A stretch of 64,000 nt of DNA. It comes from an uncultured Chloroflexia bacterium. GTDB taxonomy: Bacteria; Chloroflexota; Anaerolineae; Anaerolineales; UBA4823. The notes beneath the pieces were generated by a model, which was not told the DNA's origin, did no database searches, and saw only the letters and a program-made list of their open reading frames with translations. The DNA is taken from the NCBI GenBank assembly GCA_963809805.1, contig CAWELB010000007.1:458837-522836 (forward strand), written 5' to 3'. This document shows positions 18,376 through 45,221 of this stretch, piece after piece. The stretch's first letter is position 1, and each line of letters opens with the position of its first letter. The translations under genes were made by a program, and so were the position numbers.

Positions 18376-18481
18376 ATCACCTCAATAGTTTAAGAGCGCA
18401 GTGACAAAGTGTTTTACTCACAGAGCGATACGAAGATGATGAATTCACACCCGATCTGTGCAGCTCACTTTAATTTTGAAA

Positions 18482-19444: not shown

Positions 19445-19470
19445 AGTTACTCCTGTCTAAAAATCTGGTA

Positions 19471-20298: not shown

Positions 20299-20335
20299 TT
20301 TTCCTCCTGTTGAACTTGATTAAAAATACGACCTA

Positions 20336-21208: not shown

Positions 21209-21304
21209 GGGTCTTAAGCTCCTTGATATAAAATTCCATATATTTTAGATGAGCCTGCTCAAAGATCGAGCAGGCTCAAATTTAGAACGAAGTGAAATCG
21301 AGTC

Positions 21305-22615: not shown

Positions 22616-22767
22616 TTGTAATTCTCCTCCAACAAATTTAAAAATTTTTGAATATCCAATCTCAACGTGCTTTGCCTTAATTTTATTCTATGGGCACCTC
22701 CTATATTCTCTCTTATTCTCGCATGTCATTCTATCAGACCATTGGGGATAGCGAGATTATAACGCCT

Positions 22768-23784: not shown

Positions 23785-23787
23785 TCC

Positions 23788-24783: not shown

Positions 24784-24784
24784 G

Positions 24785-26371
24785 TCATACCTCTCCTACC
24801 GGGGTTGCAACCTGCGGGGTGTAACTTTTCGAATGGCCGGTTGCCATCATCATGATCTCTTGTTCACTAGATTTTGCAGGTAGCTCACCAGCGATCCGGC
24901 GTTCTGCCATCACAATGATCCGGTCGCTCATTCCAATGATTTCCGGTAACTCAGATGAAATCATCAATACCGCAGTGCCTTTTTTGGTTAATGCGCGGAT
25001 CATATCGTGGATGCTTGCCTTTGATTCCACGTCGATGCCGCGCGTGGGCTCATCAAAAATAAACACATCCGCATCTGATGCAAGCCATTTAGCCAGCACC
25101 ACTTTTTGTTGATTCCCACCGCTCAGGTATTGCGTCTCGCGATCAAACGAGTCGGTGCGGATGTCAACCTGTTGACCCAACATGGGAACGAGCCTGCGCG
25201 ACTTCCCGGTCCCATCCTTGTGGATGAGGCCAAATAGCGCTTGGACTGCCCTGACTGTTAAGAGCATATTATCCCGAATTGGTTGGCGGGGAGCAATTCC
25301 TTCCGATTTACGGTCTTCGGTGACAAACCCCATCTTATTCTTGATCGCTTTAGAGGGGCTTTTAATCGCGATTGCTTTTTCATGCAGTTCAATCTTGCCC
25401 GTTTTGAATGGCACCACACCGAATAAGGATTGTGCCAGCTCAGTTCGTCCTGAGCCCTGCAGCCCGGCGATACCCAGCACTTCCCCTTTCCGAAGCTCAA
25501 AACTGATGCCGGTGAGGATTTGGTTGGAAGCATCCTGAACCCTTAATACCACCTCACCAAAGTCCTCCGGCTTGCCCAATGGTGGGAAGTAATGGTCAAG
25601 GGCGCGTCCCACCATTAGGTATACCAGGTCAGAAGGGGTGACATCCCTCTTGTTCACTGTTTTGATGAACTTCCCATCCTTTAGGACTGTGATTTTTTCA
25701 GCAATATCGAAAACCTCTTTCAAGCGATGGGAAATGAATATGATTGACATTCCTCTTTGTTTCAAACGACCCACCAGATCGTTGAGTAAATTTACCTCGG
25801 TATAGGTAAGAGCAGCAGTAGGCTCATCCATGATCAGCACTTTGGCTTTAAAGGATATTGCTTTCGCAATCTCAACCAGCTGCTGCTCTGCAACTGATAG
25901 ATTGCTGACCATGGTGGTTGGTGAGAACATTCCCTCGACACCAATCTCTTTTAGCACCTCGATTGCCTGTCTATTCATCTTTCCAATATCGAGTGTCCCC
26001 GCTCGTGTGGGCTCACGACCAAGAAAAATATTATGCGCTACAGTTCTCTCAGGCAGCAGATTGAATTCTTGGTAGATGATGCTGACCCCTTTCAACTGAG
26101 CTTCTTTAGGATGAGAGAAGGAAACTTTTTCACCACTCAGGTAAATCGTTCCAGAGTCAGGCGTATAAGCACCGGACAAGATTTTCATCAGGGTAGACTT
26201 GCCTGCACCATTCTCACCTACCACGGCATGGATCTCACCCGGGAAGAATTGCACGGAAACATCGTCAAGCGCCACCACACCGGGGAAGCGCTTGGAAATG
26301 TGTTGTACTTCCACCAACGGCTGGATACCTTCAAGTGGCTTTGGATTTATTTCATCCGTTTCATTTGCCAT
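24785..26371 (-). CDS. sugar ABC transporter ATP-binding protein (duplicated ATPase, RbsA/MglA-like)
   Basis: Walker A GENGAGKST, signature LSVAEQQ / LSGGNQQK, and Walker B ILIMDEPT / VFIFDEPT. Two nucleotide-binding domains in 528 aa. Confidence 0.9.
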   Translation of the reverse strand: MANETDEINPKPLEGIQPLVEVQHISKRFPGVVALDDVSVQFFPGEIHAVVGENGAGKSTLMKILSGAYTPDSGTIYLSGEKVSFSHPKEAQLKGVSIIYQEFNLLPERTVAHNIFLGREPTRAGTLDIGKMNRQAIEVLKEIGVEGMFSPTTMVSNLSVAEQQLVEIAKAISFKAKVLIMDEPTAALTYTEVNLLNDLVGRLKQRGMSIIFISHRLKEVFDIAEKITVLKDGKFIKTVNKRDVTPSDLVYLMVGRALDHYFPPLGKPEDFGEVVLRVQDASNQILTGISFELRKGEVLGIAGLQGSGRTELAQSLFGVVPFKTGKIELHEKAIAIKSPSKAIKNKMGFVTEDRKSEGIAPRQPIRDNMLLTVRAVQALFGLIHKDGTGKSRRLVPMLGQQVDIRTDSFDRETQYLSGGNQQKVVLAKWLASDADVFIFDEPTRGIDVESKASIHDMIRALTKKGTAVLMISSELPEIIGMSDRIIVMAERRIAGELPAKSSEQEIMMMATGHSKSYTPQVATPVGEV

Positions 26372-26401
26372 ATTACTAGCCTCATCAACAAAGACTGATG
26401 G

Positions 26402-27250
26402 TCACGCAAATAATGATTGCAAGAATTGCAGACCTTGCTGTGCAATCGCATCCTGGCTGGGAGCGATTTCGCGCCAGATACTGACTGCCCGGGCAATCTC
26501 TTTTACCTGGGAGGTAAAGGATTCGATCACAATCGGACCTTGATAATGCACACTTTTCAAAGCCGCCGAAATTCCCTGCCAATGCACCTGACCCATCCCA
26601 GGCACCCCCCTGTCATTTTCGCAGGCATGGAAGTGATAGATTTTACTGCCTGCCATACGAATGGCATCCGGGCTGCTTTTTTCTTCCAGGTGCATATGGA
26701 ATGTGTCAAGGTGCAGCCCAATATTATCCCGGTCCACATCCTTGATAAAATCCAACCCCTGCGATACCGTATTGATCATATCGGTTTCAAAGCGGTTCAG
26801 AGGCTCAAGGGCTAATTTTATGCCCTTCTTGGCGGCATAATCAGATAATTCACGCAACTCAGATACGGCTAATTTCCATTCTTCTCTTCTGGCTTCGGTG
26901 TCCTCGAGGTGAGCTTTACCCACTGCTGAATATAAGGGTCCACATACCACCGGCGAGCCAAGTTGAGCAGCAGCCTCGATTAACCAGAGGATATACTTGC
27001 GTGCGTTTGCGCGAATCATTGGGTCGGAGCTGCAAATATTACGATCGGCACCGAATACACCACAAATGATAGCCGCCAGCCGATTTTTTTTGATCGTTTC
27101 TTTAATCGTGGATAGATCGAGTAAATCGGGATTTTCGCAGGCAATTTCAAGGATATCGAATCCCATGGATTTTACTTTAGGCGCCAATTCATCTACTGCC
27201 TCAGTTGTGCAGGGCGATACCCAAACGAATGAATTGATTCCAAATTTCAT
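26402..27250 (-). CDS. sugar phosphate isomerase/epimerase (XI-like TIM barrel) 4
   Basis: Start moved to the ATG at 27250 (MKFGINSFVW...), which has a GAGGAG SD. ALEPLNRFE, HFHACEND and VIESF motifs, resembling ketose 3-epimerases/hydroxypyruvate isomerases. Confidence 0.8.
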   Translation of the reverse strand: MKFGINSFVWVSPCTTEAVDELAPKVKSMGFDILEIACENPDLLDLSTIKETIKKNRLAAIICGVFGADRNICSSDPMIRANARKYILWLIEAAAQLGSPVVCGPLYSAVGKAHLEDTEARREEWKLAVSELRELSDYAAKKGIKLALEPLNRFETDMINTVSQGLDFIKDVDRDNIGLHLDTFHMHLEEKSSPDAIRMAGSKIYHFHACENDRGVPGMGQVHWQGISAALKSVHYQGPIVIESFTSQVKEIARAVSIWREIAPSQDAIAQQGLQFLQSLFA

Positions 27251-27260
27251 CCAATGCTCC

Positions 27261-28574
27261 TCATCCTGCGTTTGTCTCGACCCGGTTGGTTGCAATCGTA
27301 AATATATTGTCCATGGCAAGATTGATTGCACCGATCACTCCGGCATCCGCTCCAATTTCCGAAAATACAATCAGCAGATCGCGGGTTGCCAAAGGTAGAG
27401 AGCGGTGTAAGACGGTCTGGCGTATCGAGGATAGCAGCTGGTCACCCAGGTTACTCACCCCTCCACCAATCACAATCATGCCCGGGTTATAGAAATTGAC
27501 CAAACCCGCCAGCACATCACCTATAAATTGTCCGCTCTCTCGAATTATTTCAATTGCCGCAGCATCGCCTTCTCTGGAGGCACTGCCTACATCATCTGCT
27601 CGCAGGACATTTCCGTTTCTTTCATAATACTGCAACATAATCGGGCTCTTACCCGCCTGGGCTGCGCTCAATGAGCGTTCGGCGATTGCCGGACCGGCCG
27701 CAACTGCTTCCAAACAACCATGGTTACCACAATGGCACAACGGACCAGTTTTGTCTACACAGATATGACCGATATCACCCGCACATCCACTGGCGCCGCG
27801 GTAGATTTTCCCTTCGCAGATAATTCCAGCGCCAATACCGGTTCCGATTTTTATAAAAATCAAGTTTTCCACGCCTCTGCCGGCGCCTTGATACCTTTCT
27901 CCTAGGGCCATCACGTTAACATCATTATCAACGACGACATTTGATGACGGGAACCATTGTTGCACGGTTTGTATGATTGGATATCGATCCCAACCTGGCA
28001 TGATGGGTGGTGATACCAGCGAACCCACCGAAAAATCCACCGGTCCCGGCACACCAATTCCGATACCGTTTAATTTATCTGAATTCAAACCGTTTTGGTG
28101 CAGCAAATCTTCAAGCAGGGTACATACGCGTCCCAATATGATGATCGGTCCATCTTTAACCGAGGCAGGTTCTGAATGTCGCATAAGCAGCCTGCCAGAA
28201 AAATCTGCAATGCCCAGATCAATGCTGGTGGCGCCAATATCTACCCCCGCTACCAGACCAAAATTGCCGTTCAGGCTGAACTTCTTCGAGCGCCTCCCCC
28301 CGGTGTATTCAGTGACATTATTTGCTACGATGATATTCTTATCGAGCAGCGAGTCGATGCAGCTTGTGATCTTGGTGCGCGAATAGTCGGTGAAGCTGAC
28401 CAGGTCCGATTTTGAAAACTCCCCATATTTACGGATCAGATCAACCAGCATTTTCTCCGAGCTGGAGATGAAATATTGGTTGGATGAAGCCTCCACCTGC
28501 AATTGCCTCACCGGTTTATCCAGTGAGGAGATGGTCCTTAATTTCTTATTCAGCACTTCGCGTGCTATTCCCAT
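27261..28574 (-). CDS. ROK-family transcriptional regulator
   Basis: N-terminal winged-HTH region, then a ROK sugar-kinase-like body with GIGVPGPVD and the Zn motif CHCGNHGCLE. Confidence 0.85.
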   Translation of the reverse strand: MGIAREVLNKKLRTISSLDKPVRQLQVEASSNQYFISSSEKMLVDLIRKYGEFSKSDLVSFTDYSRTKITSCIDSLLDKNIIVANNVTEYTGGRRSKKFSLNGNFGLVAGVDIGATSIDLGIADFSGRLLMRHSEPASVKDGPIIILGRVCTLLEDLLHQNGLNSDKLNGIGIGVPGPVDFSVGSLVSPPIMPGWDRYPIIQTVQQWFPSSNVVVDNDVNVMALGERYQGAGRGVENLIFIKIGTGIGAGIICEGKIYRGASGCAGDIGHICVDKTGPLCHCGNHGCLEAVAAGPAIAERSLSAAQAGKSPIMLQYYERNGNVLRADDVGSASREGDAAAIEIIRESGQFIGDVLAGLVNFYNPGMIVIGGGVSNLGDQLLSSIRQTVLHRSLPLATRDLLIVFSEIGADAGVIGAINLAMDNIFTIATNRVETNAG

Positions 28575-28733: not shown

Positions 28734-28784
28734 TGTTAATTACAGGATTACATATCATTATAGCGATTTGTGCTCAGATGTCAA
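28734..28784 (-). promoter_or_regulatory. sigma70-type promoter (TTGACA-16-TATAAT) plus downstream operator TGTAATCCTGTAATTAACA for the ROK/ABC operon
   Basis: On the minus strand: -35 at 28784..28779, -10 at 28762..28757, operator at 28753..28735. Read directly. Confidence 0.55.
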
Positions 28785-28895
28785 TATCTTTTGCGCAAAT
28801 CAGTACTACTTATGACATATTCGGTTATTAGTTTGCCTTATATTGTGTTTTACTCTGGCTGCTTAGTATCCTTGAAAAATCTATCTTCCCTTGGA

Positions 28896-30227
28896 TTAGA
28901 GGGTGACGCATTCCATATCGAATACTTTTGATACCATTTCCAGCTCGCTCAAGTTATGACCATTGGTGATAATATAGTGATGTGAAACCAGGTCATTGAC
29001 GAGCTTTTTTCCGTTAGGCACGCGAATGACGGCACCATTCAGGCAGTCTGAATTTTCGAACTGCGCATATTTCGGCAGCTCAGCCTCCACAATGGACCAG
29101 CGATCAAAAGGCGGCATCAGTTTTACCAGCGTAATATCACCTTCTGCAAAGCGACCATTGATGGCGGTCGCATTATCATCCACAATCGCCAGCACCTTCT
29201 TCTCCAGCTTCCATTCCGTCGAGAAAGATTGTGGGACCACGCCAAAATATCCACAGTGGGCGGCCAGGATATAATTTTCAGGCGCACCCTCGACCTCGGG
29301 AAAGTATGGGATATGTTCATGCTTTAACGCTGCATATCCCATCTGGAACGGGTACAGGTTGGTCATCATGAAAGGTACTCCGATGGTCTTCCCAATCAGG
29401 ACCTTGGTGAGCATGGATACCAGGTCAGCTTCGCAGCCCCAAACCAGACATTGATCTTCATAGAGGAAATTCCAGGCCAGGCAAGGGGTTGTATCCGAGA
29501 ACATGGATTCATTCAGACAATTGATCCCGGCCGCGATGATGTCCGGGTCCTGGTCCAGGTCTCTCTTGACCGCCATGTAGAGTTTCACCGCGCTTAAGAT
29601 CGCTCGTTTGGTCATTTTTCCAATGGGGGTTTTCGCTTTGCGCTGTTCCCATACCTTTTCAGCTGCTTCATCAGAAATAGCATTGGCGTCCTGCCCCAAC
29701 TTCTTGAAGCTCTTTTTTATGACTGTAACACCATACTTTTTCTCAATCGCATCAATACACTCCGGTTCCCACCAGTAGAATCGTTTGAAGATATCATCTT
29801 GTTTGCCTGTACCACTGGCTGGGTTATCCTGGTAGGCTAAGATCTTAGATTGTCTCAGCTGGCGTTTTAGTGCGAAAGCCCGGCACACCTGTTTGGTTTT
29901 TTCGAGATCTGTGGGACCAATGACCTTTACGCCTTTAGCGGTCAGGTAGCTGTTGATCTCCCAATCCCACATAGAGACTGTTCCAAATTCGGAGGTCACA
30001 ATCAAGAGTGGTTGAGGCAGCCTCTTGATTTTATCCAGCAATCGATAGGCTTGCCCCAGCATCTCCGGGAAAATAACTCCGTCTGTATCGGGTAGTTTTT
30101 CTCCTAATAAGACCGGATCTAAAATTTGAGCTTCGTCTGCCAGCAGTTCATGTAGTTTTTTCAATTGGGTGGAAAATGCGGGATCATCGACGGTTTTAAA
30201 GTAAATCGGAACAAGTTTTGCTTTCAT
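28896..30227 (-). CDS. L-fucose/L-arabinose isomerase-family protein (putative sugar isomerase)
   Basis: 443 aa. The WGCEADLVSM motif resembles the (E)GD catalytic-loop region of AraA/FucI-like isomerases. C-terminal HHYIITNGH. The assignment is tentative. Confidence 0.45.
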   Translation of the reverse strand: MKAKLVPIYFKTVDDPAFSTQLKKLHELLADEAQILDPVLLGEKLPDTDGVIFPEMLGQAYRLLDKIKRLPQPLLIVTSEFGTVSMWDWEINSYLTAKGVKVIGPTDLEKTKQVCRAFALKRQLRQSKILAYQDNPASGTGKQDDIFKRFYWWEPECIDAIEKKYGVTVIKKSFKKLGQDANAISDEAAEKVWEQRKAKTPIGKMTKRAILSAVKLYMAVKRDLDQDPDIIAAGINCLNESMFSDTTPCLAWNFLYEDQCLVWGCEADLVSMLTKVLIGKTIGVPFMMTNLYPFQMGYAALKHEHIPYFPEVEGAPENYILAAHCGYFGVVPQSFSTEWKLEKKVLAIVDDNATAINGRFAEGDITLVKLMPPFDRWSIVEAELPKYAQFENSDCLNGAVIRVPNGKKLVNDLVSHHYIITNGHNLSELEMVSKVFDMECVTL

Positions 30228-30284
30228 AATTAGCTCCTTATCGCACGTAATTGACGGATCACCATTCGAAGGTCAAACAAAGGA

Positions 30285-30314
30285 GGGGCAGGAGGCTAAA
30301 GCTACCTGTCCCCC
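30285..30314 (-). terminator. terminator-like hairpin after the Gfo/Idh/MocA gene
   Basis: The minus strand reads ggggacagg-N11-cctgcccc followed by tcctttgttt. Confidence 0.45.
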
Positions 30315-30356
30315 CTTGTGATATTACCAGTAATCTATCTGCTGCCTATCCAAGCT

Positions 30357-31520
30357 TTACTTGATGTCGGAGACGGTTACTTTTCGACCTGTGGTTGCTG
30401 ATTTAATCGCCGCTTCCAAAACTTGCATCGCTTTCATGCCATCATAAAAGTTCGGCGAAATCTTGGTTCCTTTATCAATCGCGGTCAGGAAATCTGCGAT
30501 GGCATGCGAGAAGGCGTGCTCATAGCCGATGATGTGCCCGGGTGGCCACCAGGCTGCCACGTATGGATGGGTGGAATTCGTCACCAGGATTGTTCGGAAT
30601 CCCTGCTCATCTGCTGCATCCGCCAGGTTCAAATATTGAAGCTCGTTCATGCGCTCGAGGTTGAAAATCAGGCTGCCTTTGCTGCCATATATTTCAAAGT
30701 AGTTGTAATTCTTCCGCCCGCTGGCAAACCGGCTGGCTTCAAACGATCCCAGGGCACCATTTTCGAACTCTGCCAGCATAAACGCGGCATCGTCCACCGT
30801 CACCTGCGCCTTATCGGTAGCTCCGGTACCAGCTTTGAAGGTGCCGGCACCCTTACCAGGTAATGGTCGTTCGGTGATGAAAGTCTTCATCATCGCCGTC
30901 ACTGCCTGGATTTCGCCCACCAGGTATCGTCCCAGGTCAACGCTGTGGGAGTTCAAATCGTAGTGCGGTCCGGCGCCTGCGAATTTCTTTTGTAAATGCC
31001 AGGTGAGTGGGAATTTGGGATCAGTGATCCAATCTTGCAGGTAAGTCCCACGCCAATGATAGATCGTGCCAATCTTTCCCTCATCGATCAATTGCCTGGC
31101 AAATGTAATTGCTGGAGCCCGGCGGTAGTTATGGTTGAGGTAGTGCACCACACCAGCTTTTTCCGCGGCTTCGTACATTTCTTTGGCACCCGCATAGGTC
31201 AGGGTGATGGGTTTTTCGCAAAAGATATGCTTCCCATTCTGAGCCGCCGCGATCGCCATCTCCTGGTGCAGCCAGGTTGGCACGCAGATATCTACAATAT
31301 CAACGTCTTTGCGTTCAACCACCTTACGCCAATCCGTCTCAATCGTCTCCCAACCCCAATTGTTTGCGAAAGTGGTGGTGCAATCAACTTCTGTGTCACA
31401 TGCCACTTTCATCACCGGCTTTATACCCAGCTGGAAAAACTTGGGTGTTCTTTCCCAGGCATTACTATGGGCTTTGCCCATAAAGCCGGTTCCGATAATT
31501 GCTACATTTAGTGTTTTCAA
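30357..31520 (-). CDS. Gfo/Idh/MocA-family oxidoreductase
   Basis: VAIIGTGFMGKAH Rossmann N-terminus and the EKP motif (FCEKPIT); 387 aa. Confidence 0.85.
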   Translation of the reverse strand: MKTLNVAIIGTGFMGKAHSNAWERTPKFFQLGIKPVMKVACDTEVDCTTTFANNWGWETIETDWRKVVERKDVDIVDICVPTWLHQEMAIAAAQNGKHIFCEKPITLTYAGAKEMYEAAEKAGVVHYLNHNYRRAPAITFARQLIDEGKIGTIYHWRGTYLQDWITDPKFPLTWHLQKKFAGAGPHYDLNSHSVDLGRYLVGEIQAVTAMMKTFITERPLPGKGAGTFKAGTGATDKAQVTVDDAAFMLAEFENGALGSFEASRFASGRKNYNYFEIYGSKGSLIFNLERMNELQYLNLADAADEQGFRTILVTNSTHPYVAAWWPPGHIIGYEHAFSHAIADFLTAIDKGTKISPNFYDGMKAMQVLEAAIKSATTGRKVTVSDIK

Positions 31521-31553
31521 TGCATTCTCTCCTTCAATCGTCAGGCGGGACTA

Positions 31554-32417
31554 TCAATTCAAATCCGCGGCAATTTTCTTCAATTCCTTAACACTCAAAG
31601 CGACTGCTTCATCCTCCCGCCCGGTCCAATCTGCGTGTGGATGGTCAATCTCGACTGCCAGGAACCCTTTGAAGTCGGCTTTGTGGAGCATTTGGGCTAA
31701 AGCCTGGTTATTGATCAAGCCCATTCCAACGGGTACACCGGCGAAAAAGTGCCAATCGGTGGGTCGGGCGCTCTTATCCGGCATCAAATCTTTGACATGC
31801 GTGGCTAGAGTGTAGGGGGCAAGCTTTTCCATCCCTTTCACCGGGTCATCCAGCAGGCGCAGGAAGTTGCCCGTATCAAAATTCAGGCCAAAGTATTCCG
31901 AATCAACCATCTCGAGCAGCTGCAGGATCTCGGCGCTGGTGAAGTCGATGTGATTCTCAACCGCCATTTTTATACCATGGTCTTTGGCAATCGGCACGGC
32001 TTTTTTGAACATTTTTACCAGGGCTTCAATCTGGGGTCCGTGCGGCTCGTGCCTGAACATCAAGCTGCTCCCCACCACACGCATCACATCCGCCCCAATG
32101 GCGACGGCATTCGGAATGCCTGCCACCATCTCGTCATAAGCAGTCCAATTCTGACCGCGCTCAAGCCCATCCGGGTGACCCCAGGCGTATACACGATCCA
32201 ATTTGTAATCATCCAATTGTGCTTTCAGGTCTTTGAACCAGGTCTGGTCAATATTGGGTGGGAAGAAGCATGATTCAAGCGAAACCCCGTCCACATTCAA
32301 TTCCTTGGCGCGGGTGAGAAAATCCTGCATGCTCATATTTTTCGCAGGGGGTTTCTGGTCAGGATATACCTCACCGAAGAAACGATGAAAACAGTAACTA
32401 TCAATTCCGACTTTCAT
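31554..32417 (-). CDS. sugar phosphate isomerase/epimerase (XI-like TIM barrel) 5
   Basis: Start moved to the ATG at 32417 (MKVGIDSYCF...), which has an AGGAGG SD. AVENH, THVKD and AVEIDH motifs. Confidence 0.8.
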   Translation of the reverse strand: MKVGIDSYCFHRFFGEVYPDQKPPAKNMSMQDFLTRAKELNVDGVSLESCFFPPNIDQTWFKDLKAQLDDYKLDRVYAWGHPDGLERGQNWTAYDEMVAGIPNAVAIGADVMRVVGSSLMFRHEPHGPQIEALVKMFKKAVPIAKDHGIKMAVENHIDFTSAEILQLLEMVDSEYFGLNFDTGNFLRLLDDPVKGMEKLAPYTLATHVKDLMPDKSARPTDWHFFAGVPVGMGLINNQALAQMLHKADFKGFLAVEIDHPHADWTGREDEAVALSVKELKKIAADLN

Positions 32418-32540
32418 TTTGAGCCTCCTGAGATTAGATTGGTGAACCTGTTTATATTTGAGTCCGGGTGATGCTACTTTGCTATTCTTCCACAAGGAAT
32501 AACAACAGCTTTTGTCGATTGTTTAGCAAGAATTAAAAAC

Positions 32541-32590
32541 CTGTCATTACAGGATAACATTATTATAACGATTAATATCTCATACTTCAA
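32541..32590 (-). promoter_or_regulatory. sigma70-type promoter (TTGAAG-18-TATAAT) plus operator TGTTATCCTGTAATGACA for the 32417..30357 operon
   Basis: On the minus strand: -35 at 32590..32585, -10 at 32566..32561, operator at 32558..32541. Read directly. Confidence 0.5.
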
Positions 32591-32677
32591 GACATTGGTG
32601 CATGATCGCTGTGTTTACTTCAATAATACGGTATTCTATTCCGGCTTCCAATAGTCTGAATTTTACCAATTATTCTA

Positions 32678-32729
32678 TTGACAGGTTAGGGGTTTCTTTC
32701 TATAATGAGTTGTAATCACAGGATTACAA
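32678..32729 (+). promoter_or_regulatory. consensus sigma70 promoter TTGACA-17-TATAAT followed by perfect palindrome TTGTAATC-ACAG-GATTACAA (operator)
   Basis: -35 at 32678-32683, -10 at 32701-32706, 20-bp dyad at 32710-32729. Lies 23 nt upstream of the GntR-family gene start. Confidence 0.65.
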
Positions 32730-32751
32730 CAAAATCTGTTGATCTTAAGGG

Positions 32752-33585
32752 ATGGATTCCATGAAAGAATCGATCAATTTCGAGAGCCATATTCCATACT
32801 ACCTTCAATTAATCGATATTTTGAAGGAAAAGGTACAGCAAGCTGAATGGGCGCCAGGCGATCAAATTCCGGGTGAACAGGATCTCTGCGAGCATTATCA
32901 AGTCAGCCGCACTGTCGTCAGGCAAGCACTGCGCGAATTGGAATACGAAGGTGTGATCACGCGCCAAAAGGGTAAAGGCACTTTCATCTCCCTGCCTAAA
33001 ATCAGTGAAGGGCTGGTGCAAAAGCTGACTGGGTTTTACCAAGACATGGTGGAACGCGGGCTAAAACCTGGCTCAAAAGTGCTTTACCAAAATGTCAGCC
33101 CAGCCTCTGAGAAAGTTGCCCGTTTCCTCAACATCAATCCGTCTGATCGGGTAATTGATATTCAACGCTTGAGATACATCAATGATGAGCCCATCCAATT
33201 GGTCACCACCTACGTTCCATTTGAGATTTGCCCGGGTCTCGCCAGTGTCGATCTGACCAATCGCTCACTCTATGAATACCTGGAAAAAGAATGCGGTATT
33301 TTTATTGCCAAGGGGCAGCGGTATATCGAAGCTGTTCTGGCAAATGAGCATGAAGCCACCTTGCTCGGTATCGACCGCGGAGCCCCATTGTTGATGTTGG
33401 ATAGTGTTAGTTTTTCCGAGGATGGACGACCAATAGAATACTATCATGCCCTCCATCGCGGTGACCGGTCGCGCTTTGAGGTCGAGCTGGTCAGATTGCG
33501 TGAACCGGGCTCAAGGACCAGCGAGCTCGCAGGTAACTTTTCTGCTGCCTCAAAGATGCGCTCCACAGATGGCGGTTTCAAATGA
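32752..33585 (+). CDS. GntR-family (HutC subfamily, UTRA domain) transcriptional regulator
   Basis: The wHTH PGEQDLCEHYQVSRTVVRQALRELEYEGVITRQKGKGTF, followed by a ~150-aa UTRA-like effector domain. Confidence 0.85.
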   Translation: MDSMKESINFESHIPYYLQLIDILKEKVQQAEWAPGDQIPGEQDLCEHYQVSRTVVRQALRELEYEGVITRQKGKGTFISLPKISEGLVQKLTGFYQDMVERGLKPGSKVLYQNVSPASEKVARFLNINPSDRVIDIQRLRYINDEPIQLVTTYVPFEICPGLASVDLTNRSLYEYLEKECGIFIAKGQRYIEAVLANEHEATLLGIDRGAPLLMLDSVSFSEDGRPIEYYHALHRGDRSRFEVELVRLREPGSRTSELAGNFSAASKMRSTDGGFK

Positions 33586-33638: not shown

Positions 33639-35174
33639 ATGCCCAAGAAATACTTGATCGGCGTTGATCTTGGAACCAGTGCTACCAAGGCAGCGCTGTA
33701 TCAGATTAACGGGAAGCTTATTTCGGAAGCCTCCGTGGAGGTGCCACTTTTTTATCCCTCGCCGGGTGTGGTCGAGCAGGATAATGAAGATTTCTATACT
33801 TCCGCAGCCCAAACCGTGCGGAAGTGCGTGGAATCCAGCGGCGTAGACCCGCATGCCATTGCGGCAATTGCATTTGATTCACAGATGGCCGGCGTGGGAC
33901 TGCTTGGGGAAGATTTCAAACCCGTCGCCAGGTTTGACTCCTGGTTGGATATGCGCTGCCAACCCTATATCGAGTGGATGGATAAGGAAGCTGGGGATCG
34001 CATTACCCAGCTCACCGGTTGCCCTCCCACCTGTGACCATGGTCCCAAGATGCTGTGGTGGAAGCACGAACAGCCTGAGGTTTACCGGCGGACGGCGAAA
34101 TTTGTCATGCCCGGGACGTATGTAGCCGGCAGGATCGCAGGATTAACCGCTGCTGAGGCATTTATCGATTATACCTACATCCATTTTTCCGGGTTTTCTG
34201 ATGCCCAATCGGAGACCTGGTCCGACGAATTATGTGGGCTCTTCGGGCTGGACAAGGACAAACTCCCCCGCATCATCGATTCCTGTACCATCATCGGTGA
34301 AGTGCAGGGTGAATCCGCCAGAGAGTTTGGGTTGGCTCCCGGTACCCTGGTTGCCGCCGGTGCTGGAGATACGGCTGCCAATGCCTTGGGTGCAGGTATT
34401 GTGAACCCGGGGATGCTTTTTGATGTCGCTGGCACAGCAGCCGTCCTGGCAGGGTGCACCGATAAATTTGTGGCAGATACCAGGCACCGTGCCTTGATCA
34501 CCATGCGTTCGGTCATCCATGGATTATGGAATCCGCTGGCGTATATCGGGGGCGGTGGGATTGCATTACGCTGGTTCCGCGATCAATTCTACAATTGTGC
34601 CCGCGGCCAAAACATGCCCAAAACGGATGAAGATCTGTATCCGCAAATGATCTCGCAGGTTGATGGGGTGGCACCGGGTTCGGATGGTTTGTTCTTTTCG
34701 CCCCACCTGGGAGGTCGCATTTGTCCATCCAGCCCCGCTATGCGCGGCGCATGGCTGGGAGTGTCATGGTCGCATACCCAGGCTCATTTTACGCGTTCGA
34801 TTTTGGAAAGCATCGCCTATGAATACGCCTATTATTTAAAAATTCTCAGGGAATCATTGCCAGATTTAGTGCTGGTGGAAGCGCGTGTGGTCGGTGGTGG
34901 GGCGCGCAGTGAAGCATGGAACCAGATCAAAGCTGACGTGCTCAATGTGCCTTATCAGAGACTGAAGGGCAACGAGTTTGGTGCCTGGGGCGCCGCCATG
35001 ATCGCCGGCAAGGCCGCTGGTTTGATCGATGACCTGGCTTCCCATGCTGAGCAGACCGCCATCTTGAGCGGCAAGCCATTCCGCCCAGCGCAAGAAAAGC
35101 ACGCCATCTATGCTCCCTTGATAGAAAAATATATCTTGCTAGAAGAGACTTTGAACCGGTTTTATCAATCGTAG
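33639..35174 (+). CDS. FGGY-family carbohydrate kinase 1 (xylulokinase-like)
   Basis: The N-terminal YLIGVDLGTSATKAALY, GAGDTAANALGAG and a C-terminal GGGARS pattern. Confidence 0.85.
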   Translation: MPKKYLIGVDLGTSATKAALYQINGKLISEASVEVPLFYPSPGVVEQDNEDFYTSAAQTVRKCVESSGVDPHAIAAIAFDSQMAGVGLLGEDFKPVARFDSWLDMRCQPYIEWMDKEAGDRITQLTGCPPTCDHGPKMLWWKHEQPEVYRRTAKFVMPGTYVAGRIAGLTAAEAFIDYTYIHFSGFSDAQSETWSDELCGLFGLDKDKLPRIIDSCTIIGEVQGESAREFGLAPGTLVAAGAGDTAANALGAGIVNPGMLFDVAGTAAVLAGCTDKFVADTRHRALITMRSVIHGLWNPLAYIGGGGIALRWFRDQFYNCARGQNMPKTDEDLYPQMISQVDGVAPGSDGLFFSPHLGGRICPSSPAMRGAWLGVSWSHTQAHFTRSILESIAYEYAYYLKILRESLPDLVLVEARVVGGGARSEAWNQIKADVLNVPYQRLKGNEFGAWGAAMIAGKAAGLIDDLASHAEQTAILSGKPFRPAQEKHAIYAPLIEKYILLEETLNRFYQS

Positions 35175-35222
35175 CCCTGCAGTATCCGTTTGGAGAAATC
35201 ACTTGGTATTGAGGAATTTTTG

Positions 35223-36260
35223 ATGAATAAACAAATCCGAATTTGCATGATCGGTGGTGGCAGAGTGGGGAAAAATCACTCGCGCGCCATCACCCGTTAT
35301 GTTCCTGGCGCGAAAATAGTCGCGCTGGTTGAAACGATGGAACAAGTGCGCCAGGACACCTCCAATGAATTTGGGATCGAGAACCAATTCGATTCGCTTG
35401 AGGCTGCACTTGGCAAGGTTGATTTTGATGCCGTGGTGATCACTACTCCCACCCCCACGCACCTGCCGATTACCAGACTGGCAGCTGAAAACAAGAAGCA
35501 CGTTTTCCTGGAAAAACCGATGGCTCTTACTCTGGCGGAATGTGATGCAATCCTCGGAGTGGTTGAGCAGAATGCGGTATTTTTACAATTGGGCTTCATG
35601 CGTCGTTTTGACCCGGAGTTTATGGCGGCATCTCAACGCATCCAGGCGGGCGAGATTGGCCAGCCCATGATGATCAAAACCAATACGCATGGGCCGGGTC
35701 TGCCGCCCCCCTGGGCGCGTGACTTGCGCACCTCCAATGGCATGCTGGCGGAAGTGAACAGCCATGATTGGGATACCCTGCGCTGGTTTATGGGCTCTAA
35801 CCTCGATCGCGTCTATACCGAAGTGGCAAACTTTAAAGGTTCAGCCAACAACGTTGATACTCCCAATTTCTACGATAATGTGCTGGTCAACGTCAAATTT
35901 GAGAATGGTGGCTTGGGGATGATTTCGGGCATTTGCCCCTGCGGATATGGGTATGATGCACGCGTCGAAATTGTGGGTGAAAAGGGGATCATGCAGATCG
36001 GCGAGCTTAAAGGTCAATCGATCCTCGTCTGTACCGACCGTGACCACGGTTTGGTCACGCCCATATTTAGGACCTGGCCAGAGCGCTTCAAGTGGGCATA
36101 TATCAATGAATTGGAACACTTTGTGGACTGCATCCTGACTGGAACTCCTCCGCGGGCAGGCGGTATTGACGGCCGTTGGGCGGTGGCGGGTGTCTTAGCC
36201 GGGACGAAATCCTTTTTGGAAGAGCGTCCGGTTTATCTGAAAGAAATTTTGGATGCTTGA
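35223..36260 (+). CDS. Gfo/Idh/MocA-family oxidoreductase (inositol-dehydrogenase-like)
   Basis: Start moved to the ATG at 35223 with a GAGGA SD. IRICMIGGGRVGKNH and FLEKPMA (EKP motif). Confidence 0.85.
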   Translation: MNKQIRICMIGGGRVGKNHSRAITRYVPGAKIVALVETMEQVRQDTSNEFGIENQFDSLEAALGKVDFDAVVITTPTPTHLPITRLAAENKKHVFLEKPMALTLAECDAILGVVEQNAVFLQLGFMRRFDPEFMAASQRIQAGEIGQPMMIKTNTHGPGLPPPWARDLRTSNGMLAEVNSHDWDTLRWFMGSNLDRVYTEVANFKGSANNVDTPNFYDNVLVNVKFENGGLGMISGICPCGYGYDARVEIVGEKGIMQIGELKGQSILVCTDRDHGLVTPIFRTWPERFKWAYINELEHFVDCILTGTPPRAGGIDGRWAVAGVLAGTKSFLEERPVYLKEILDA

Positions 36261-36282
36261 GGTTAACCGAGAGCGAGGCGAA

Positions 36283-37326
36283 ATGCTTGCAGCCGTATAT
36301 CATGGTCCGAATGATTTGCGCGTAGAAAACGTACCAGTACCAGAAATTGGTAGAGGTGAAATCCTGGTTAAGGTGCTTAGCGCCAGTATCTGTGGGACCG
36401 ATTTACGCATCTATCACGGCAATCACCGCATGTACCCACCCGGGACGGTACGTATCCCTGGTCACGAAGTGGTAGGGACGATCGCAGATATCGGCCCACA
36501 GGTCAGCGGCTATACCCTCGGGCAGCGCGTATTTTGCGCCCCAAACACCGGTTGCGGTCACTGCGAGCAATGCGTGACGGGTAATAACAACCTGTGTGCC
36601 AATTATGACGCCATCGGGGTGACTTCCGATGGAGGTTTCGCCGAATATGTCCGTATTCCAGCCAACTCCGTCCAACAAGGAAATGTGATCCCGGTGAGCG
36701 AAAGCGTTGACCCAGCCGTCGCCGCCCTGGTGGAACCGTTCGCCTGCGTGCTCAGGGGACAAAATGCGCTGCACATAAAACCCGGTGAAATCGTGCTCAT
36801 CATAGGCGCCGGACCGATTGGGGTGATGCACATCAAGCTTGCCAGAGCGCAGGGAGCCGGGCGCATCATCGTCAGCGAGCCAATGCCCACCCGCGCTGCC
36901 CAGGCAAAACGGATGGGTGCCCAGCGCGTGATTGATCCTGGTGTTGAGGATATAAAGGCAATTTTGAGTGCAGAAACCCTCGGCCATGGAGCAGATGTGA
37001 TCATTATTGCCGCGCCGGTCCATGCAGCCCAGGAAAGTGCCATCGAGCTTGCTGCCATCGGGGGAAGGATCAACTTTTTTGGCGGGCTTCCGAAGGATCG
37101 ACCCAATATCAATTTTAATTCCAACCTGGTGCATTACAAGGAGCTGGTGGTCACGGGTACAACCGCATGCAGCACTGCGGATTGCTGGCAGGCGACCCGG
37201 ATTGTTGATTCTGGCCTGGTAGATCTATCGGATATTGTCAGCCAGCGATTGCCGCTAAAAGACGCACTGCAGGCTTTCGCAGCCGCCGAAGACGGGAATT
37301 CTTTAAAAATCGTTCTGGAACCCTGA
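36283..37326 (+). CDS. zinc-dependent alcohol/polyol dehydrogenase (MDR family) 1
   Basis: CGTDLRIY, GHEVVGTI, structural-Zn CGHCEQCVTGNNNLC, and GAGPIG. The track start at 36253 overlaps the upstream gene, so the ATG at 36283 (MLAAVYHGP) is preferred. Confidence 0.85.
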   Translation: MLAAVYHGPNDLRVENVPVPEIGRGEILVKVLSASICGTDLRIYHGNHRMYPPGTVRIPGHEVVGTIADIGPQVSGYTLGQRVFCAPNTGCGHCEQCVTGNNNLCANYDAIGVTSDGGFAEYVRIPANSVQQGNVIPVSESVDPAVAALVEPFACVLRGQNALHIKPGEIVLIIGAGPIGVMHIKLARAQGAGRIIVSEPMPTRAAQAKRMGAQRVIDPGVEDIKAILSAETLGHGADVIIIAAPVHAAQESAIELAAIGGRINFFGGLPKDRPNINFNSNLVHYKELVVTGTTACSTADCWQATRIVDSGLVDLSDIVSQRLPLKDALQAFAAAEDGNSLKIVLEP

Positions 37327-37331
37327 TCTAT

Positions 37332-38294
37332 ATGACCTCTTCCTCAGCTTCCATGATGCCGCGACCCGTAATGACTGTTCAAGGACCCCTGCCTTATGAT
37401 CAATTGGGTGTTACTGACGCGCATAATCATGCTTGGATCGATGCCATCCCAGGTGCAAGTGAAGGCAGTCCGGTTCTGAATCATTATGATCTTATCCTGA
37501 GGGAGCTGGTCGAGTACCGTGAGAATGGTGGAGCATCCCTGCTGGATTGTCAACCTGGCGGGTGTGGTCGAGATGGTAACAGGCTATTGCAGCTCTCTTC
37601 GGCTTCCAGAGTCAATTTAATCGCCTGTACCGGCTTCCACCGGAAAAAATACTACCCTACCGATTATTGGCTGTGGGATGCGAGCGCTCAAAAAGTGAGT
37701 GATACCCTGATCACCGAGCTCCAGCGAGGGTTGGATGAGACCTTGGATACTCCCAATCCTATCAAGGCCGGGTTTATCAAGATCGCCTTCGAAGCTGCCT
37801 GGGAAGATTGTCCGTTGGCTGCCCTGGAAGGCGCGGCTTCAGCTGCTTACGATTCCAAAGCATTAATCGAAATTCATACCGAAAAAGGTTCCCTGGCAGA
37901 AAAAGCCTGTGTTTATTTTATGAATAAGAATGTGTCGCCCCAACAGCTGGTGTTGTGCCACATGGATAAGAGGCCAGACCTCAGCCTGCATAAAGCGCTT
38001 GCCAATCTTGGAGTATTGCTCGAGTATGACACCTTTTATCGCCCGAAGTACAAGCCCGAAACCAACTTGTGGCCGTTGATGGATCAAATGGTCAGCGCAG
38101 GTTTATCCAACCGGGTTGCCCTCGCCACTGATATGGCTGAGCCTGCTCTCTACCATAATATTGGCGGCGGACCGGGCTTATCCAGCCTGCCTGGTGAGAT
38201 CCAGCGAAAGCTAATCGAAAAAGGATACCCGGAAGCTGCCCGAAAGCAGATGCTGGGAGAGAATATTGCCCGCCGGCTTGCCGGGATAGATTGA
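37332..38294 (+). CDS. phosphotriesterase-related (PTE/amidohydrolase-fold) protein, possible lactonase
   Basis: GVTDAHNHAWID (HxH) near the N-terminus, and the ~320-aa length typical of PTE-like proteins. Confidence 0.6.
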   Translation: MTSSSASMMPRPVMTVQGPLPYDQLGVTDAHNHAWIDAIPGASEGSPVLNHYDLILRELVEYRENGGASLLDCQPGGCGRDGNRLLQLSSASRVNLIACTGFHRKKYYPTDYWLWDASAQKVSDTLITELQRGLDETLDTPNPIKAGFIKIAFEAAWEDCPLAALEGAASAAYDSKALIEIHTEKGSLAEKACVYFMNKNVSPQQLVLCHMDKRPDLSLHKALANLGVLLEYDTFYRPKYKPETNLWPLMDQMVSAGLSNRVALATDMAEPALYHNIGGGPGLSSLPGEIQRKLIEKGYPEAARKQMLGENIARRLAGID

Positions 38295-38313
38295 TGCGAA
38301 TCAGGAGAAATAA

Positions 38314-38886
38314 ATGGTTGACTTACCTTTTGCGTTCACACTTCCTATGCCACAGGTGATTCCTTCCAGGGTGGATAATCACATTGAGCGCCACCTCTCC
38401 GCACTGAAAGGCCAATTTTTAGATCAAGATACTTATCACAAAATGCTTGCGGACGGCGACAGGTTGATCTATGAAGTGTATGAAATCAAGCGGCCAGAGG
38501 TCGAAGGTGAGTTATTGATGGGCATCTCGATTGTCCATCCAGGCAAGGTAGGCAATGAATTCTTCATGACCAAGGGGCATTTTCACTCTATCCTCGATAC
38601 CGCGGAAGTCTATTATTGCTTGCGCGGTGAAGGTTACATGGTGATGGAAACTCCCGAAGGTGATACTTCCGTTGAAGCGCTCTCCCCTGGGAAAGTCTTA
38701 TATGTCCCGCCACGCTGGGCTCACAGGTCCGTTTGCACCTCGCGCCAGGAAGACCTGGTGACATTCTTCGCTTATCCGGGCAACGCCGGTCATGACTATG
38801 GCACGATCGAACGCCAGGGTTTTCGGAAGCTGGTGGTCGAAGGTGCAAATGGTCCTGAAATCATTGATAACCCGCGCTGCTTATGA
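38314..38886 (+). CDS. cupin-type glucose-6-phosphate-isomerase-like protein
   Basis: 190 aa. The TKGHFHSILDTAEVYYCLRGEGYMVM motif matches the TxGHxH...E cupin metal site of archaeal-type cPGI. Confidence 0.6.
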   Translation: MVDLPFAFTLPMPQVIPSRVDNHIERHLSALKGQFLDQDTYHKMLADGDRLIYEVYEIKRPEVEGELLMGISIVHPGKVGNEFFMTKGHFHSILDTAEVYYCLRGEGYMVMETPEGDTSVEALSPGKVLYVPPRWAHRSVCTSRQEDLVTFFAYPGNAGHDYGTIERQGFRKLVVEGANGPEIIDNPRCL

Positions 38887-38919
38887 CCAGGAGGTTGAAT
38901 AAATCTTAAAGAATGCCGC

Positions 38920-39864
38920 TTGTTGGTCACACCCACCTCCTATGGCAAAAACGATTCCCGCCTCAAAACGGAATTGGAGGCGCAGGTAGGGGAAGTAATC
39001 TACAACCCAACCGGCAAGCCGCTCACGTCTGCTGAAGTTGCGCGCTTATTACCAGGCATGGATGGCTATATTGCCGGGTTGGATGGCATCGATGCTGCCG
39101 CATTAAGCGCGGCTGACCGCCTTAAAGTGATCTCACGCTATGGAGTTGGGATCGATAATGTGGACCTGGTTACGGCGCGCGCAATGGGGATCGTGGTGAC
39201 CAATACTCCCGGAGCGAATTCCGTCTCGGTTGCTGAGCTTGCCCTGGGATTGATCCTGGCACTGGCGCGCCAGATCCCCGAAGCGGTCGAGGCAGTTCAC
39301 CAGGGCAAGTGGCCTCGCTATGCCGGGATCAGTCTTGAAGGCAAAACCATTGGGATCCTCGGGCTGGGCGCAATCGGCAAACAGCTCGCCCGCCGTCTCT
39401 CTGGTTTCGATTGCAAGCTCCTGGCGTTCGACCCGTTTGCGGATGCAGGTTTTGCGGATGCCAATCAGGTCGAGCTTGCTAGTATGGATGAGGTGGTCCA
39501 ACGCTCCGATTTTATCAGCCTGCACCTGCCTCTATTACCGGAGACGCGCAACCTGGTGAACGTGAGCTTCTTGAACAGGATGAAGAAAGGCTCTTTCCTG
39601 GTGAATACCTCCCGTGGAGAAGTGGTGGATGAATCTGCGCTGTTAAATGCACTCCAGACTGGTCAGCTCAAAGGAGCAGGGCTGGATGCGTTCGCCAGCG
39701 AGCCTCCTGATCCAAAGAACCCACTTTTGGCGTTACCGCAGGTGATTGCCACCCCTCATCTGGGAGCGCAAACCGATGGCGCCACCAGTAACATGGGTTG
39801 GTTCGCCATGCGTGATTGCCTGGCAGTGTTAAATAACGAAGAACCAATTTATCGGGTTGTTTAG
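38920..39864 (+). CDS. D-isomer-specific 2-hydroxyacid dehydrogenase (phosphoglycerate/glyoxylate reductase-like)
   Basis: GILGLGAIGKQLARRL NAD motif, RGEVVDE and TPHLGAQT. TTG start. Confidence 0.85.
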   Translation: MLVTPTSYGKNDSRLKTELEAQVGEVIYNPTGKPLTSAEVARLLPGMDGYIAGLDGIDAAALSAADRLKVISRYGVGIDNVDLVTARAMGIVVTNTPGANSVSVAELALGLILALARQIPEAVEAVHQGKWPRYAGISLEGKTIGILGLGAIGKQLARRLSGFDCKLLAFDPFADAGFADANQVELASMDEVVQRSDFISLHLPLLPETRNLVNVSFLNRMKKGSFLVNTSRGEVVDESALLNALQTGQLKGAGLDAFASEPPDPKNPLLALPQVIATPHLGAQTDGATSNMGWFAMRDCLAVLNNEEPIYRVV

Positions 39865-39896
39865 TTATTATTCTAGATATCTTTAGCGGAGGATTT

Positions 39897-40541
39897 ATGC
39901 AGAAAACAGAAGTGTTAGAAAAAGTAAAGCAGCTTGGTCTGCTGGCGGTGATCCGCGGTCCATCTCCCGAATTAACCGTCAAAATGGTTGGCGCCTTGGT
40001 CGAAGGTGGAGTCTTGGGCATTGAAATCACTTACAGCACACCCAATGCAGAGGAAGTGGTCCGAACCCTCGCCAAATTATTTGCGGATAAAATCCTGCTT
40101 GGTATGGGAACCCTGACCAAACCCGAGCAAGCACAGGCTGCCAAAGCTGCCGGTGCAAGCTTCGTGGTCAGCCCGGTTTGTGAGCCCAATTTGGTGAAAA
40201 GCATGGCCGCGAGTGGATTGTTGAACATGGCGGGAGCATTAACCCCCACCGAAGTCTTGCAAGCATACAACCTGGGAGCAGACGTCGTAAAAATCTTCCC
40301 CGGCTCCCTGGGTGGACCCGCTTATATCAAAGCCCTCAAAGGACCCTTCCCGTACATCCCCATGATGCCTACGGGTGGTGTAAGCGCCGGGAATGTGGCC
40401 GATTGGTTTTCCGCCGGGGTTGTAGCCGTGGGTGCTGGAAGTGAGCTCTGCCCACCCCAGCTGGCTAAAGAAGGAAAATTTGATGAAATCTCAAAACGCG
40501 CCGCTGAGTTCGTGCAGATCGTAAAATCCGCCAGAGCATAG
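39897..40541 (+). CDS. eda: 2-dehydro-3-deoxyphosphogluconate / 4-hydroxy-2-oxoglutarate aldolase
   Basis: 214 aa. LLAVIRG, GIEITYSTPNA and VVKIFPG (Schiff-base Lys context) are typical of the KDPG aldolase family. Confidence 0.8.
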   Translation: MQKTEVLEKVKQLGLLAVIRGPSPELTVKMVGALVEGGVLGIEITYSTPNAEEVVRTLAKLFADKILLGMGTLTKPEQAQAAKAAGASFVVSPVCEPNLVKSMAASGLLNMAGALTPTEVLQAYNLGADVVKIFPGSLGGPAYIKALKGPFPYIPMMPTGGVSAGNVADWFSAGVVAVGAGSELCPPQLAKEGKFDEISKRAAEFVQIVKSARA

Positions 40542-40571
40542 CGGCATGACACCAGGAAAACGATCATAATT

Positions 40572-42548: not shown

Positions 42549-42565
42549 TAAATCATGGATGTCCT

Positions 42566-45192: not shown

Positions 45193-45221
45193 TCAAAAAT
45201 AATGACCAAGGAGCAGATGTT

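Follow-up and report, generated by a model that had tools for sequence, protein, structure and literature searches.

The stretch of DNA analysed here, a 64-kb window from an Anaerolineae (Chloroflexota) genome whose organism is known solely through metagenome assemblies, carries a sugar supercluster of unassigned substrate. Within this cluster lies a gene (32752..33585, + strand) encoding a GntR/HutC-family regulator, which combines a GntR domain of the winged helix-turn-helix type (wHTH) with a UTRA domain (PF00392, PF07702). Three promoters, P1, P2 and P3, occur around it. P1 faces the regulator gene and the kinase, oxidoreductase and aldolase genes that follow on the same strand; P2 diverges from P1 within the same intergenic region and faces an operon with a TIM-barrel gene and a levoglucosan-dehydrogenase-like gene; and P3 lies between the 443-amino acid (aa) gene of that second operon and a ROK-family gene, which is followed by the genes of an ATP-binding cassette (ABC) transporter. 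Immediately behind the -10 hexamer of each promoter stands a copy of the same 18-bp motif (O1, O2 and O3). The comparison of this genome with its relatives makes it likely that the regulator encoded at 32752(32761)-33585 has these three copies as its operators.

The comparison rests on 80 species-level genomes, whose loci were chosen via the regulator (54-92% identical to the one described here); all are Anaerolineae or other Chloroflexota metagenome-assembled genomes, save one labelled Bipolaricaulia, and the gene order around the regulator is largely kept among them. Promoter regions were aligned over 29 (P1), 27 (P2) and 19 (P3) orthologous loci, in which the regulator is 68-92% identical. 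P1 consists of TTGACA (32678..32683, +), kept as ATTGACA, and TATAAT (32701..32706, +) across a spacer of 17 bp, just as a sequence-only reading of this DNA had described it; both hexamers are invariant in 29 of 29 orthologous regions and the spacer sequence varies. For P2, the same reading had rightly named TTGAAG (32585..32590, - strand), of which only TTG is conserved (invariant in the 27 orthologues), followed by TATAAT, but had placed the latter at 32566-61 and so allowed a spacer of 18 bp; the -10 lies at 32562..32567 (-), behind a 17-bp spacer, and is likewise invariant in the 27 orthologues. P3 is made up of TTGACA (28779..28784, -), of which TTGAC never varies among 19 orthologues, a 16-bp spacer and a nearly invariant TATAAT (28757..28762, -). 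Its presence, together with O3, in front of the ROK/ABC-transporter operon turns what had been proposed as a two-promoter scheme into one with three promoters. The match to the sigma70-type consensus is 12/12 for P1 and P3 and 10/12 for P2, and P3, P1 and P2 are, in this order, the top three hits of a promoter scan of 28400-33000. Of perfect TTGACA-N16-18-TATAAT, 0.03 copies would be expected in the window; it contains two, and the motif lies within 4 nucleotides (nt) after each of them.

O1, TGTAATCACAGGATTACA (32711..32728, +), begins 4 nt (GAGT) past the -10 of P1 and covers the predicted +1. O2 (32542..32559; + strand, TGTCATTACAGGATAACA; promoter strand, TGTTATCCTGTAATGACA) begins 2 nt (AA) past the -10 of P2 and is conserved in 27 orthologues. 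O3 (28735..28752; + strand, GTTAATTACAGGATTACA; promoter strand, TGTAATCCTGTAATTAAC) was found by a mismatch-tolerant motif search of the window; it begins 4 nt past the -10 of P3, ahead of the ROK/ABC-transporter operon, and is conserved before ROK orthologues. The three predicted operators therefore overlap the core promoters, their positions relative to +1 being derived from promoter geometry, which predicts starts close to 32713 (+), 32555 (-) and 28750 (-). With a weight matrix trained solely on sites from other loci, a scan of the window gave 27.8 bits for O2, 26.4 bits for O1 and 22.7 bits for O3, with 14.4 bits for the next best match; the maxima of 20 shuffled windows scored with the same matrix ranged from 9.3 to 19.0 bits. 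The association between the motif and the promoters is real and far beyond chance. On the + strand, O1 and O2 are identical at 15 of 18 positions and are direct copies, and therefore lie in opposite orientations relative to their own promoters. The earlier view that the same operator follows each promoter thus holds for the sequence, but the orientation is shared in absolute terms and not relative to the promoters; the minus-strand site does stand 2 nt behind the P2 -10, although its span (32559-42) had been placed 1 nt off. Cooperative looping between O1 and O2 was considered and rejected, as their spacing among orthologues ranges from 115 to 403 bp with no helical phasing. Looping is therefore not required, and the two look like independent operators.

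The alignments leave little doubt as to which parts of these intergenic regions are under constraint. In the P1 alignment, ATTGACA, TATAAT, TGTA(A)T-n-ACAGGATTACAA and the TG of the start codon are invariant, and the spacer sequence, the upstream DNA and the leader are scrambled. The invariant parts of the P2 alignment are TTG, 17 bp, TATAAT and most of the operator, of which positions 4 and 15 vary, and those conserved at P3 are ATTGACA, TATAATG and TGTAATC(C/A)TGTAATTA(A/C). The hexamers and operators are the only invariant blocks in the 27-29 orthologous P1/P2 intergenic regions. Absence of the motif from orthologous intergenic regions would have counted against the sequence-only reading; it is present there, in 19-29 loci per promoter. 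The 80 loci contain 118 strong sites, of which 113 are accompanied by a TAnAAT hexamer no more than 22 nt away, usually at 2-5 nt and on either side, and none of the 118 falls inside a homology-defined coding region.

The degenerate positions of the 18-mer are 4, 7 and 15, and they therefore delimit three copies of a half-site, TGTnAT: H1 (positions 1-6, forward), H2 (5-10, reverse) and H3 (13-18, reverse). In O1 and O2, H1 and H2 form a 10-bp palindrome of the HutC type, TGTnATnACA, whose GT and AC stand 4 nt apart; the suggestion that the core fits the GT-N-AC dyads of GntR-family proteins is thus borne out. H3 (ATnACA) repeats H2 8 bp further on, across an almost invariant GG, so that H2 and H3 form a direct repeat ATnACA-GG-ATnACA (TGTnAT-CC-TGTnAT on the opposite strand). 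In O3, the left half of the palindrome is degenerate (G2 replaced by T, giving TT for GT), and H2 and H3 are perfect. The perfect 20-bp palindrome previously described at O1 consists of two 8-bp arms flanking a non-palindromic ACAG; what is conserved in it is this shorter palindrome of 10 bp together with H3. Its eighth arm pair (C32717/G32722) is confined to this genome and its closest relative, the other 27 orthologues having A, G or T in place of the C. Operator position 7 takes all four bases in the 29 P1 orthologues and its would-be partner, G12, is invariant; the extra arm pair is therefore accidental, and the constraint is on sequence and not on a hairpin. Reading the 18-mer as a single inverted repeat, TGTAAT-N6-ATTACA, was disfavoured, as the key G would lie 8 bp from the dyad instead of the 4 bp of NagR and HutC sites. 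More distant relatives have symmetric forms with four half-sites, such as CCTGTTAT-AA-TGTAATTACA-AC-ATAACAGG at locus L048, or, at L038, three tandem 8-bp units.

This anatomy bears on the question of whether the conserved sequence might act as a 5'-terminal RNA stem-loop, influencing mRNA stability or translation, instead of as a DNA operator. The 5' end of the P1 leader can indeed form a 7-9-bp hairpin, in the window as well as in orthologues (-8 to -14 kcal/mol, z -1.3 to -2.6). By contrast, transcription crosses O2 and O3 in the other direction, no operator hairpin forms in either leader (z -0.5 and +1.5), the closing pair shows no covariation, and the presumed loop, ACAGG, is itself invariant. 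Furthermore, distant relatives such as L038 extend the site as 8-bp direct repeats with no hairpin, and no Rfam match was found in 28400-33000 at E values up to 1. Taken together, these features make an RNA role extremely improbable, and argue for a sequence that is read as DNA.

The regulator gene was listed as a 277-aa open reading frame (ORF) starting at ATG 32752 (MDSMKES...). Its true start is probably ATG 32761, giving a protein of 274 aa: at this position 27 of 29 orthologues have ATG and 2 have GTG, and a Shine-Dalgarno-like GGGGA(T)GG block precedes it and contains the first ATG. With this start, O1 would end some 32 nt before the gene, and not 23 nt as counted from the first ATG. The GntR wHTH domain occupies residues 17-79 (PF00392, E 5e-20) and the UTRA domain, which has a chorismate-lyase fold, residues 101-239 (PF07702, E 3e-46); on these two domains the protein is assigned to the HutC subfamily. 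The closest solved structures are NagR and DasR (E ~1e-44, full-length alignment). None of the NCBIfam equivalog cut-offs is reached by the protein, which is therefore without a named orthologue. At a locus on a metagenome contig (L143:1015-1250), a perfect P1-type promoter and operator are followed by a disrupted regulator frame (fragments of 44% identity), which is either a pseudogene or an assembly error.

The residues that contact DNA and ligand in NagR allow the comparison to be taken further. In NagR, Arg48 reads G-4, Arg38 reads G-5 and Gly69 of the wing touches the minor groove (PMC4333415). The counterparts of Arg48 and Gly69 here, R53 and G74, are invariant in 78 orthologues, and that of Arg38, Q43, is variable in the same set and never Arg; the retention of R53 and the lack of Arg at position 43 fit the bases of the operator, which are G at -4 but T at -5. 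The residues that bind phosphate in NagR (Arg133, Arg135, Ser165, Ile166 and Tyr167) correspond to R139, R141, S172, L173 and Y174, all of them invariant in the 78 orthologues, and those that contact the sugar (Glu145, Arg211 and Tyr228) correspond to V151, S218 and H235, which are essentially fixed (position 151 is Thr in 4 of 78). Since the phosphate binders are invariant and the sugar contacts are fixed although they differ from those of NagR, the comparison points to a single phosphorylated effector, shared by the orthologues and other than N-acetylglucosamine-6-phosphate (GlcNAc-6-P). Variants of the recognition helix (VSRTV versus VSRPV) track variants of the operator (ACAGGAT versus ACAAGAT); both follow the phylogeny, and we rejected this co-variation as independent evidence.

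The link between the sites and this regulator is provided by their common occurrence. In about 60 of the 80 species, a site lies no more than ~130 nt upstream of the regulator start codon. Where the regulator is the last gene of its operon, a site stands before the first gene in L074, and none stands there in L062, L069, L077 and L078. The motif was also pursued in a scan blind to the transcription factor, in which metagenome contigs were searched for exact TGTAATNACAGGATTACA, yielding at least 120 loci. Among the 120 matches listed, 63 were accompanied by the regulator or cluster genes and 5 more were incomplete P1-type promoters; in this listing, sites were seen before the DeoC, TIMf, GfoB, FGGY1, PTE, TIMa and ROK genes. 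That the scan again returned the same cluster speaks against a rival view in which the trans-acting factor is the product of a distant gene, for example a global carbon regulator, and the GntR gene is no more than one of its targets. In its favour, the link between protein and site is drawn indirectly and the motif sometimes occurs with no GntR gene in the DNA examined. However, throughout the 64-kb window and ~1.07 Mb of related loci, strong sites were found only at promoters of this cluster, and the pairing of a HutC-type core with a neighbouring HutC-type gene, seen in more than 60 species, is how a local autoregulator normally shows itself. We therefore regard such an external factor as improbable.

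A second candidate within the cluster itself is the ROK-family regulator (27261-28574; NagC/Mlc/XylR-like), to which the sites might belong instead of to the GntR/HutC protein. This 437-aa protein aligns with NagC and Mlc over residues 45-420 and its N-terminus is probably DNA-binding; in addition, O3 lies at its own promoter, and loci L102 and L188 carry sites and the ROK gene with no GntR gene in the DNA examined. ROK repressor operators, however, are generally longer AT-rich palindromes of a different type. Moreover, at many loci (L017, L033, L038, L043, L045 and L053-L076) the site is accompanied by the GntR gene and no ROK gene lies within 8 kb, clades with other gene orders being among the cases, and the most invariant position of a site is the promoter of the GntR gene itself. 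The core of the motif also obeys the GT-N4-AC rule of HutC sites (PMC4494728). The ROK protein is therefore a highly improbable owner of these sites. The sequence-only reading had named it as an alternative binder; the position of O3 before the ROK/ABC-transporter operon would instead place the ROK gene under the control of the GntR regulator.

Several observations weigh against the assignment of the sites to the GntR/HutC protein, or against its simplest form. The first 80 loci were chosen through the regulator, so that the linkage within them is partly built in. Around 52 of the 120 listed TGTAATNACAGGATTACA matches have no cluster gene in the DNA examined. These may be chance matches or further members of the regulon: 3 of 8 inspected, of which L088 and L125 are apparently within coding sequence, lie in unrelated contexts and look like chance. 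In L102 and L188, mentioned above, the site lies between TIMa and GfoB and no regulator gene is present in 7-13 kb. The linkage between site and regulator is thus strong but not absolute. With respect to the mode of binding, a simple dimer on a palindrome accounts neither for the asymmetric centre ACAGG, which is invariant, nor for the third half-site, and a reading of the site as a direct repeat of H2 and H3 is tenable, given that the left half of O3 is without the key G.

These last points leave room for a further, more tentative proposal, which we consider possible but rather doubtful: that the operator is an obligatory unit of three half-sites (of four half-sites and 26 bp in some relatives) and that the regulator binds it as a higher-order assembly and not as a single dimer. 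If so, two dimers offset by 8 bp, or one dimer with an additional DNA-binding domain, might make up the assembly, in a manner that recalls NanR on (GGTATA)3. O3 might then be a deliberately weaker operator, through which the transporter/ROK operon leaks so that inducer can enter the cell, and the regulon would mark a sugar pathway common among uncultured Anaerolineae, uncharacterised so far and including levoglucosan-dehydrogenase-like and phospho-lactonase-like enzymes.

Under the assignment to the GntR/HutC protein that we favour, we propose the following mechanism for the cluster. In the absence of inducer, the regulator would bind each of the three operators, the palindromic core probably being held by one dimer, and would cover roughly -4 to +16, thereby blocking RNA polymerase at P1, P2 and P3. 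Repression at P1 would amount to autoregulation and would at the same time silence the kinase/oxidoreductase/aldolase operon; repression at P2 would silence the operon of the TIM-barrel and levoglucosan-dehydrogenase-like genes; and repression at P3 would extend the control as a cascade onto the ROK regulator and the ABC transporter. A phosphorylated intermediate of the pathway would then bind the UTRA domain and free the regulator from the DNA, and a plausible candidate for this inducer is the product of the FGGY kinase encoded just downstream of the regulator. The central prediction of the sequence-only reading, an autoregulated GntR repressor coordinating both sugar arms, is hereby supported by the conserved footprints, by the joint occurrence of motif and regulator and by the HutC-type core.

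The genes under the predicted control of P1 begin with the regulator and continue with a closely packed series at 33639..41525 (+; gaps of at most 53 nt), which encodes, according to Pfam, an FGGY kinase (33639-35174), a Gfo/Idh/MocA oxidoreductase, a zinc-dependent alcohol dehydrogenase (ADH), a PTE-family lactonase-like protein, a cupin GPI-like protein, a 2-hydroxyacid dehydrogenase, a KDPG-type aldolase and a 317-aa protein. Synteny in ~40 loci accompanies this series, and its genes are presumed to be co-transcribed from P1. Beyond a 321-bp gap there follow, on the same strand, a DeoC-like aldolase, a second FGGY kinase (42509-44104), a TIM barrel and an ADH (Pfam). The 15-kb plus-strand operon previously suggested is unproven; the close packing of genes ends at 41525. 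Since the gaps 41526-41846 and 44105-44220 yielded neither promoter- nor terminator-like signals, read-through of the P1 transcript from 41525 to 46280 is possible. A fourth operator in the window was rejected, as the matrix found no match and the same two gaps hold no promoter-like signal. Relatives do have extra promoter-operator modules before the DeoC-like aldolase gene or before the TIM-barrel gene behind the second FGGY kinase (L006:16152-16169; L038:188-205; L099:3719-3736 and 6398-6415; also L142, L149 and L188). Their lack in the window indicates that the number of promoters in the regulon varies by species.

The P2 operon (28896..32495, -), described from Pfam, NCBIfam and PDB matches and from synteny, comprises the TIM-barrel gene, the levoglucosan-dehydrogenase-like Gfo gene and the 443-aa gene of no assigned family. 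The TIM-barrel gene is listed from TTG 32495, but its true start is probably ATG 32417 (MKVGID...), as AGGAGG at 32430-25 precedes it; the P2 leader would therefore measure ~140 nt. The Gfo/Idh/MocA gene (30357-31520, -) scores 411 bits against NF052479, below the cut-off of 650, and matches PDB 6a3f at E 8e-103. Given the many xylose-isomerase-like TIM barrels nearby, its product may act on an anhydro- or 3-keto-sugar. The P3 operon, of tentative downstream extent (17290..28574, -; Pfam), contains the ROK regulator-like gene, TIM barrels, a ribose-type ABC transporter (ATPase, two permeases and binding protein), three more TIM barrels and an M24 peptidase-like gene. The ROK protein has a NagC/Mlc-like match in NCBIfam that is below cut-off, and the P3 leader before its gene measures ~160-175 nt. 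In many orthologues this leader (28575-28735 here) holds a small conserved palindrome or hairpin, (C)CGG-N8-(C)CGGT, which is weaker in the window (TTCGGTTCAA region) and could be the operator of the ROK protein itself or an RNA structure.

Neither the product of the 443-aa gene (28896-30227, -) nor that of the 317-aa gene (40572-41525, +) fell into a Pfam family (E <=0.001) or matched a sequence in the PDB; both genes are kept in most related loci, and the 317-aa product has only a faint, shikimate-dehydrogenase-like match in NCBIfam. NCBIfam and PDB gave sub-threshold likenesses only (levoglucosan dehydrogenase, inositol 2-dehydrogenase, phospho-furanose lactonase and xylulokinase) and no name for the pathway. 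Further downstream on the + strand, the 750-bp gap after the last ADH gene includes a short ORF (46550-46960; IDHVSINVIDLAKSLDFY...) with a by-eye likeness to the glyoxalase/VOC family. The adjoining ORFs 47030-47761 and 47802-48272 (+) both match Oxidored_FMN (Old Yellow Enzyme), at profile positions 2-231 and 307-342, and look like one split or frameshifted gene. An ORF of 2964 aa (51363-60257, -) lies downstream of the sugar cluster.

The regulatory logic outlined above, an autoregulated local repressor that occludes its promoters, is a textbook one. Three features are mildly unusual: the third half-site equals the core in strictness of conservation, a point of interest for the assembly of GntR-family proteins on DNA; promoter hexamers of the E. 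coli type are strictly kept in the Chloroflexota; and the pathway under predicted control is both uncharacterised and widespread. The value of the system lies in offering an experimentally testable regulon, with three promoters, three predicted operators, one regulator and a predicted phosphorylated effector, for a sugar supercluster whose substrate is unassigned. As this cluster is common to dozens of uncultured Anaerolineae species, the effector, once identified, would be a direct route to its substrate. In addition, the promoters show E. coli-like -35 and -10 elements under strict purifying selection in the Chloroflexota, which should be useful for promoter prediction and heterologous expression. 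No Chloroflexi regulator of the HutC subfamily was included in the survey by Suvorova et al. (2015, PMC4494728), and the present motif would thus add one for a phylum that had none. We found no earlier description in the literature of the motif or of GntR operators in Anaerolineae.

Among known systems, the closest are the Bacillus subtilis regulator NagR (YvoA) and the Streptomyces regulator DasR, together with their dre operators. Both proteins have the same wHTH and UTRA architecture and are the best PDB matches of the regulator. Like the protein described here, as we interpret it, they are local repressors of sugar-utilisation operons including their own gene, with operators in promoter regions. 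The palindromic core with GT and AC 4 nt apart, which is typical of HutC-subfamily sites (PMC4494728), is shared as well, and the contacts of Arg48 and Gly69 and the phosphate-binding residues are kept. In structures of NagR with DNA, two DNA-binding domains lie side by side on a 14-bp palindrome (PMC4333415). The differences are nonetheless substantial: the half-site is TGTnAT here and (G)TGGT in NagR and DasR sites, the equivalent of Arg38 is not Arg, the residues at the sugar-contact positions suggest an effector other than GlcNAc-6-P, the targets are kinase, oxidoreductase, lactonase-like and aldolase genes and not nag genes, and a third half-site appears to be obligatory. Membership of the NagR/DasR orthologous group was rejected, as no equivalog cut-off is reached, the operator half-site is TGTnAT and not of the GTGGTCTAGACCAC-like dre type, the sugar contacts differ and there are no nag genes. 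The comparison with HutC, the histidine utilisation repressor and founder of the subfamily, is similar in kind. It belongs to the same subfamily and has a TGT...ACA palindromic operator, and TIGR02018 matches the regulator at E 1.5e-40; the score of 139 bits falls short of the equivalog cut-off of 220, however, and the regulon described here contains no hut genes.

The third half-site, too, has parallels. In the GntR family, many palindromes have a further half-site set 7-12 nt from their centre (Suvorova et al. 2015, PMC4494728), and the centre of the extra box here lies 10 nt from the centre of the palindrome. The extra boxes in that survey were weaker, with about half the score of true half-sites, whereas the third half-site described here equals the core in invariance, in all three operators. 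Direct repeats are bound by FarR and NagQ, both of the HutC subfamily (PMC4494728), and three dimers of NanR assemble cooperatively on three hexamer repeats (PMC8012715). The repeats of FarR/MngR (TGTATTAWTT), NagQ (TGGTATT) and NanR ((GGTATA)3) resemble the direct repeat formed by half-sites 2 and 3, and some relatives of the regulator's locus stretch this repeat to three units. NanR, however, belongs to the FadR subfamily, unlike the HutC-subfamily protein described here, and what sets the sites O1 and O2 apart from those of all these repeat binders is that a true GT-N4-AC inverted repeat is conserved in them alongside the direct repeat.

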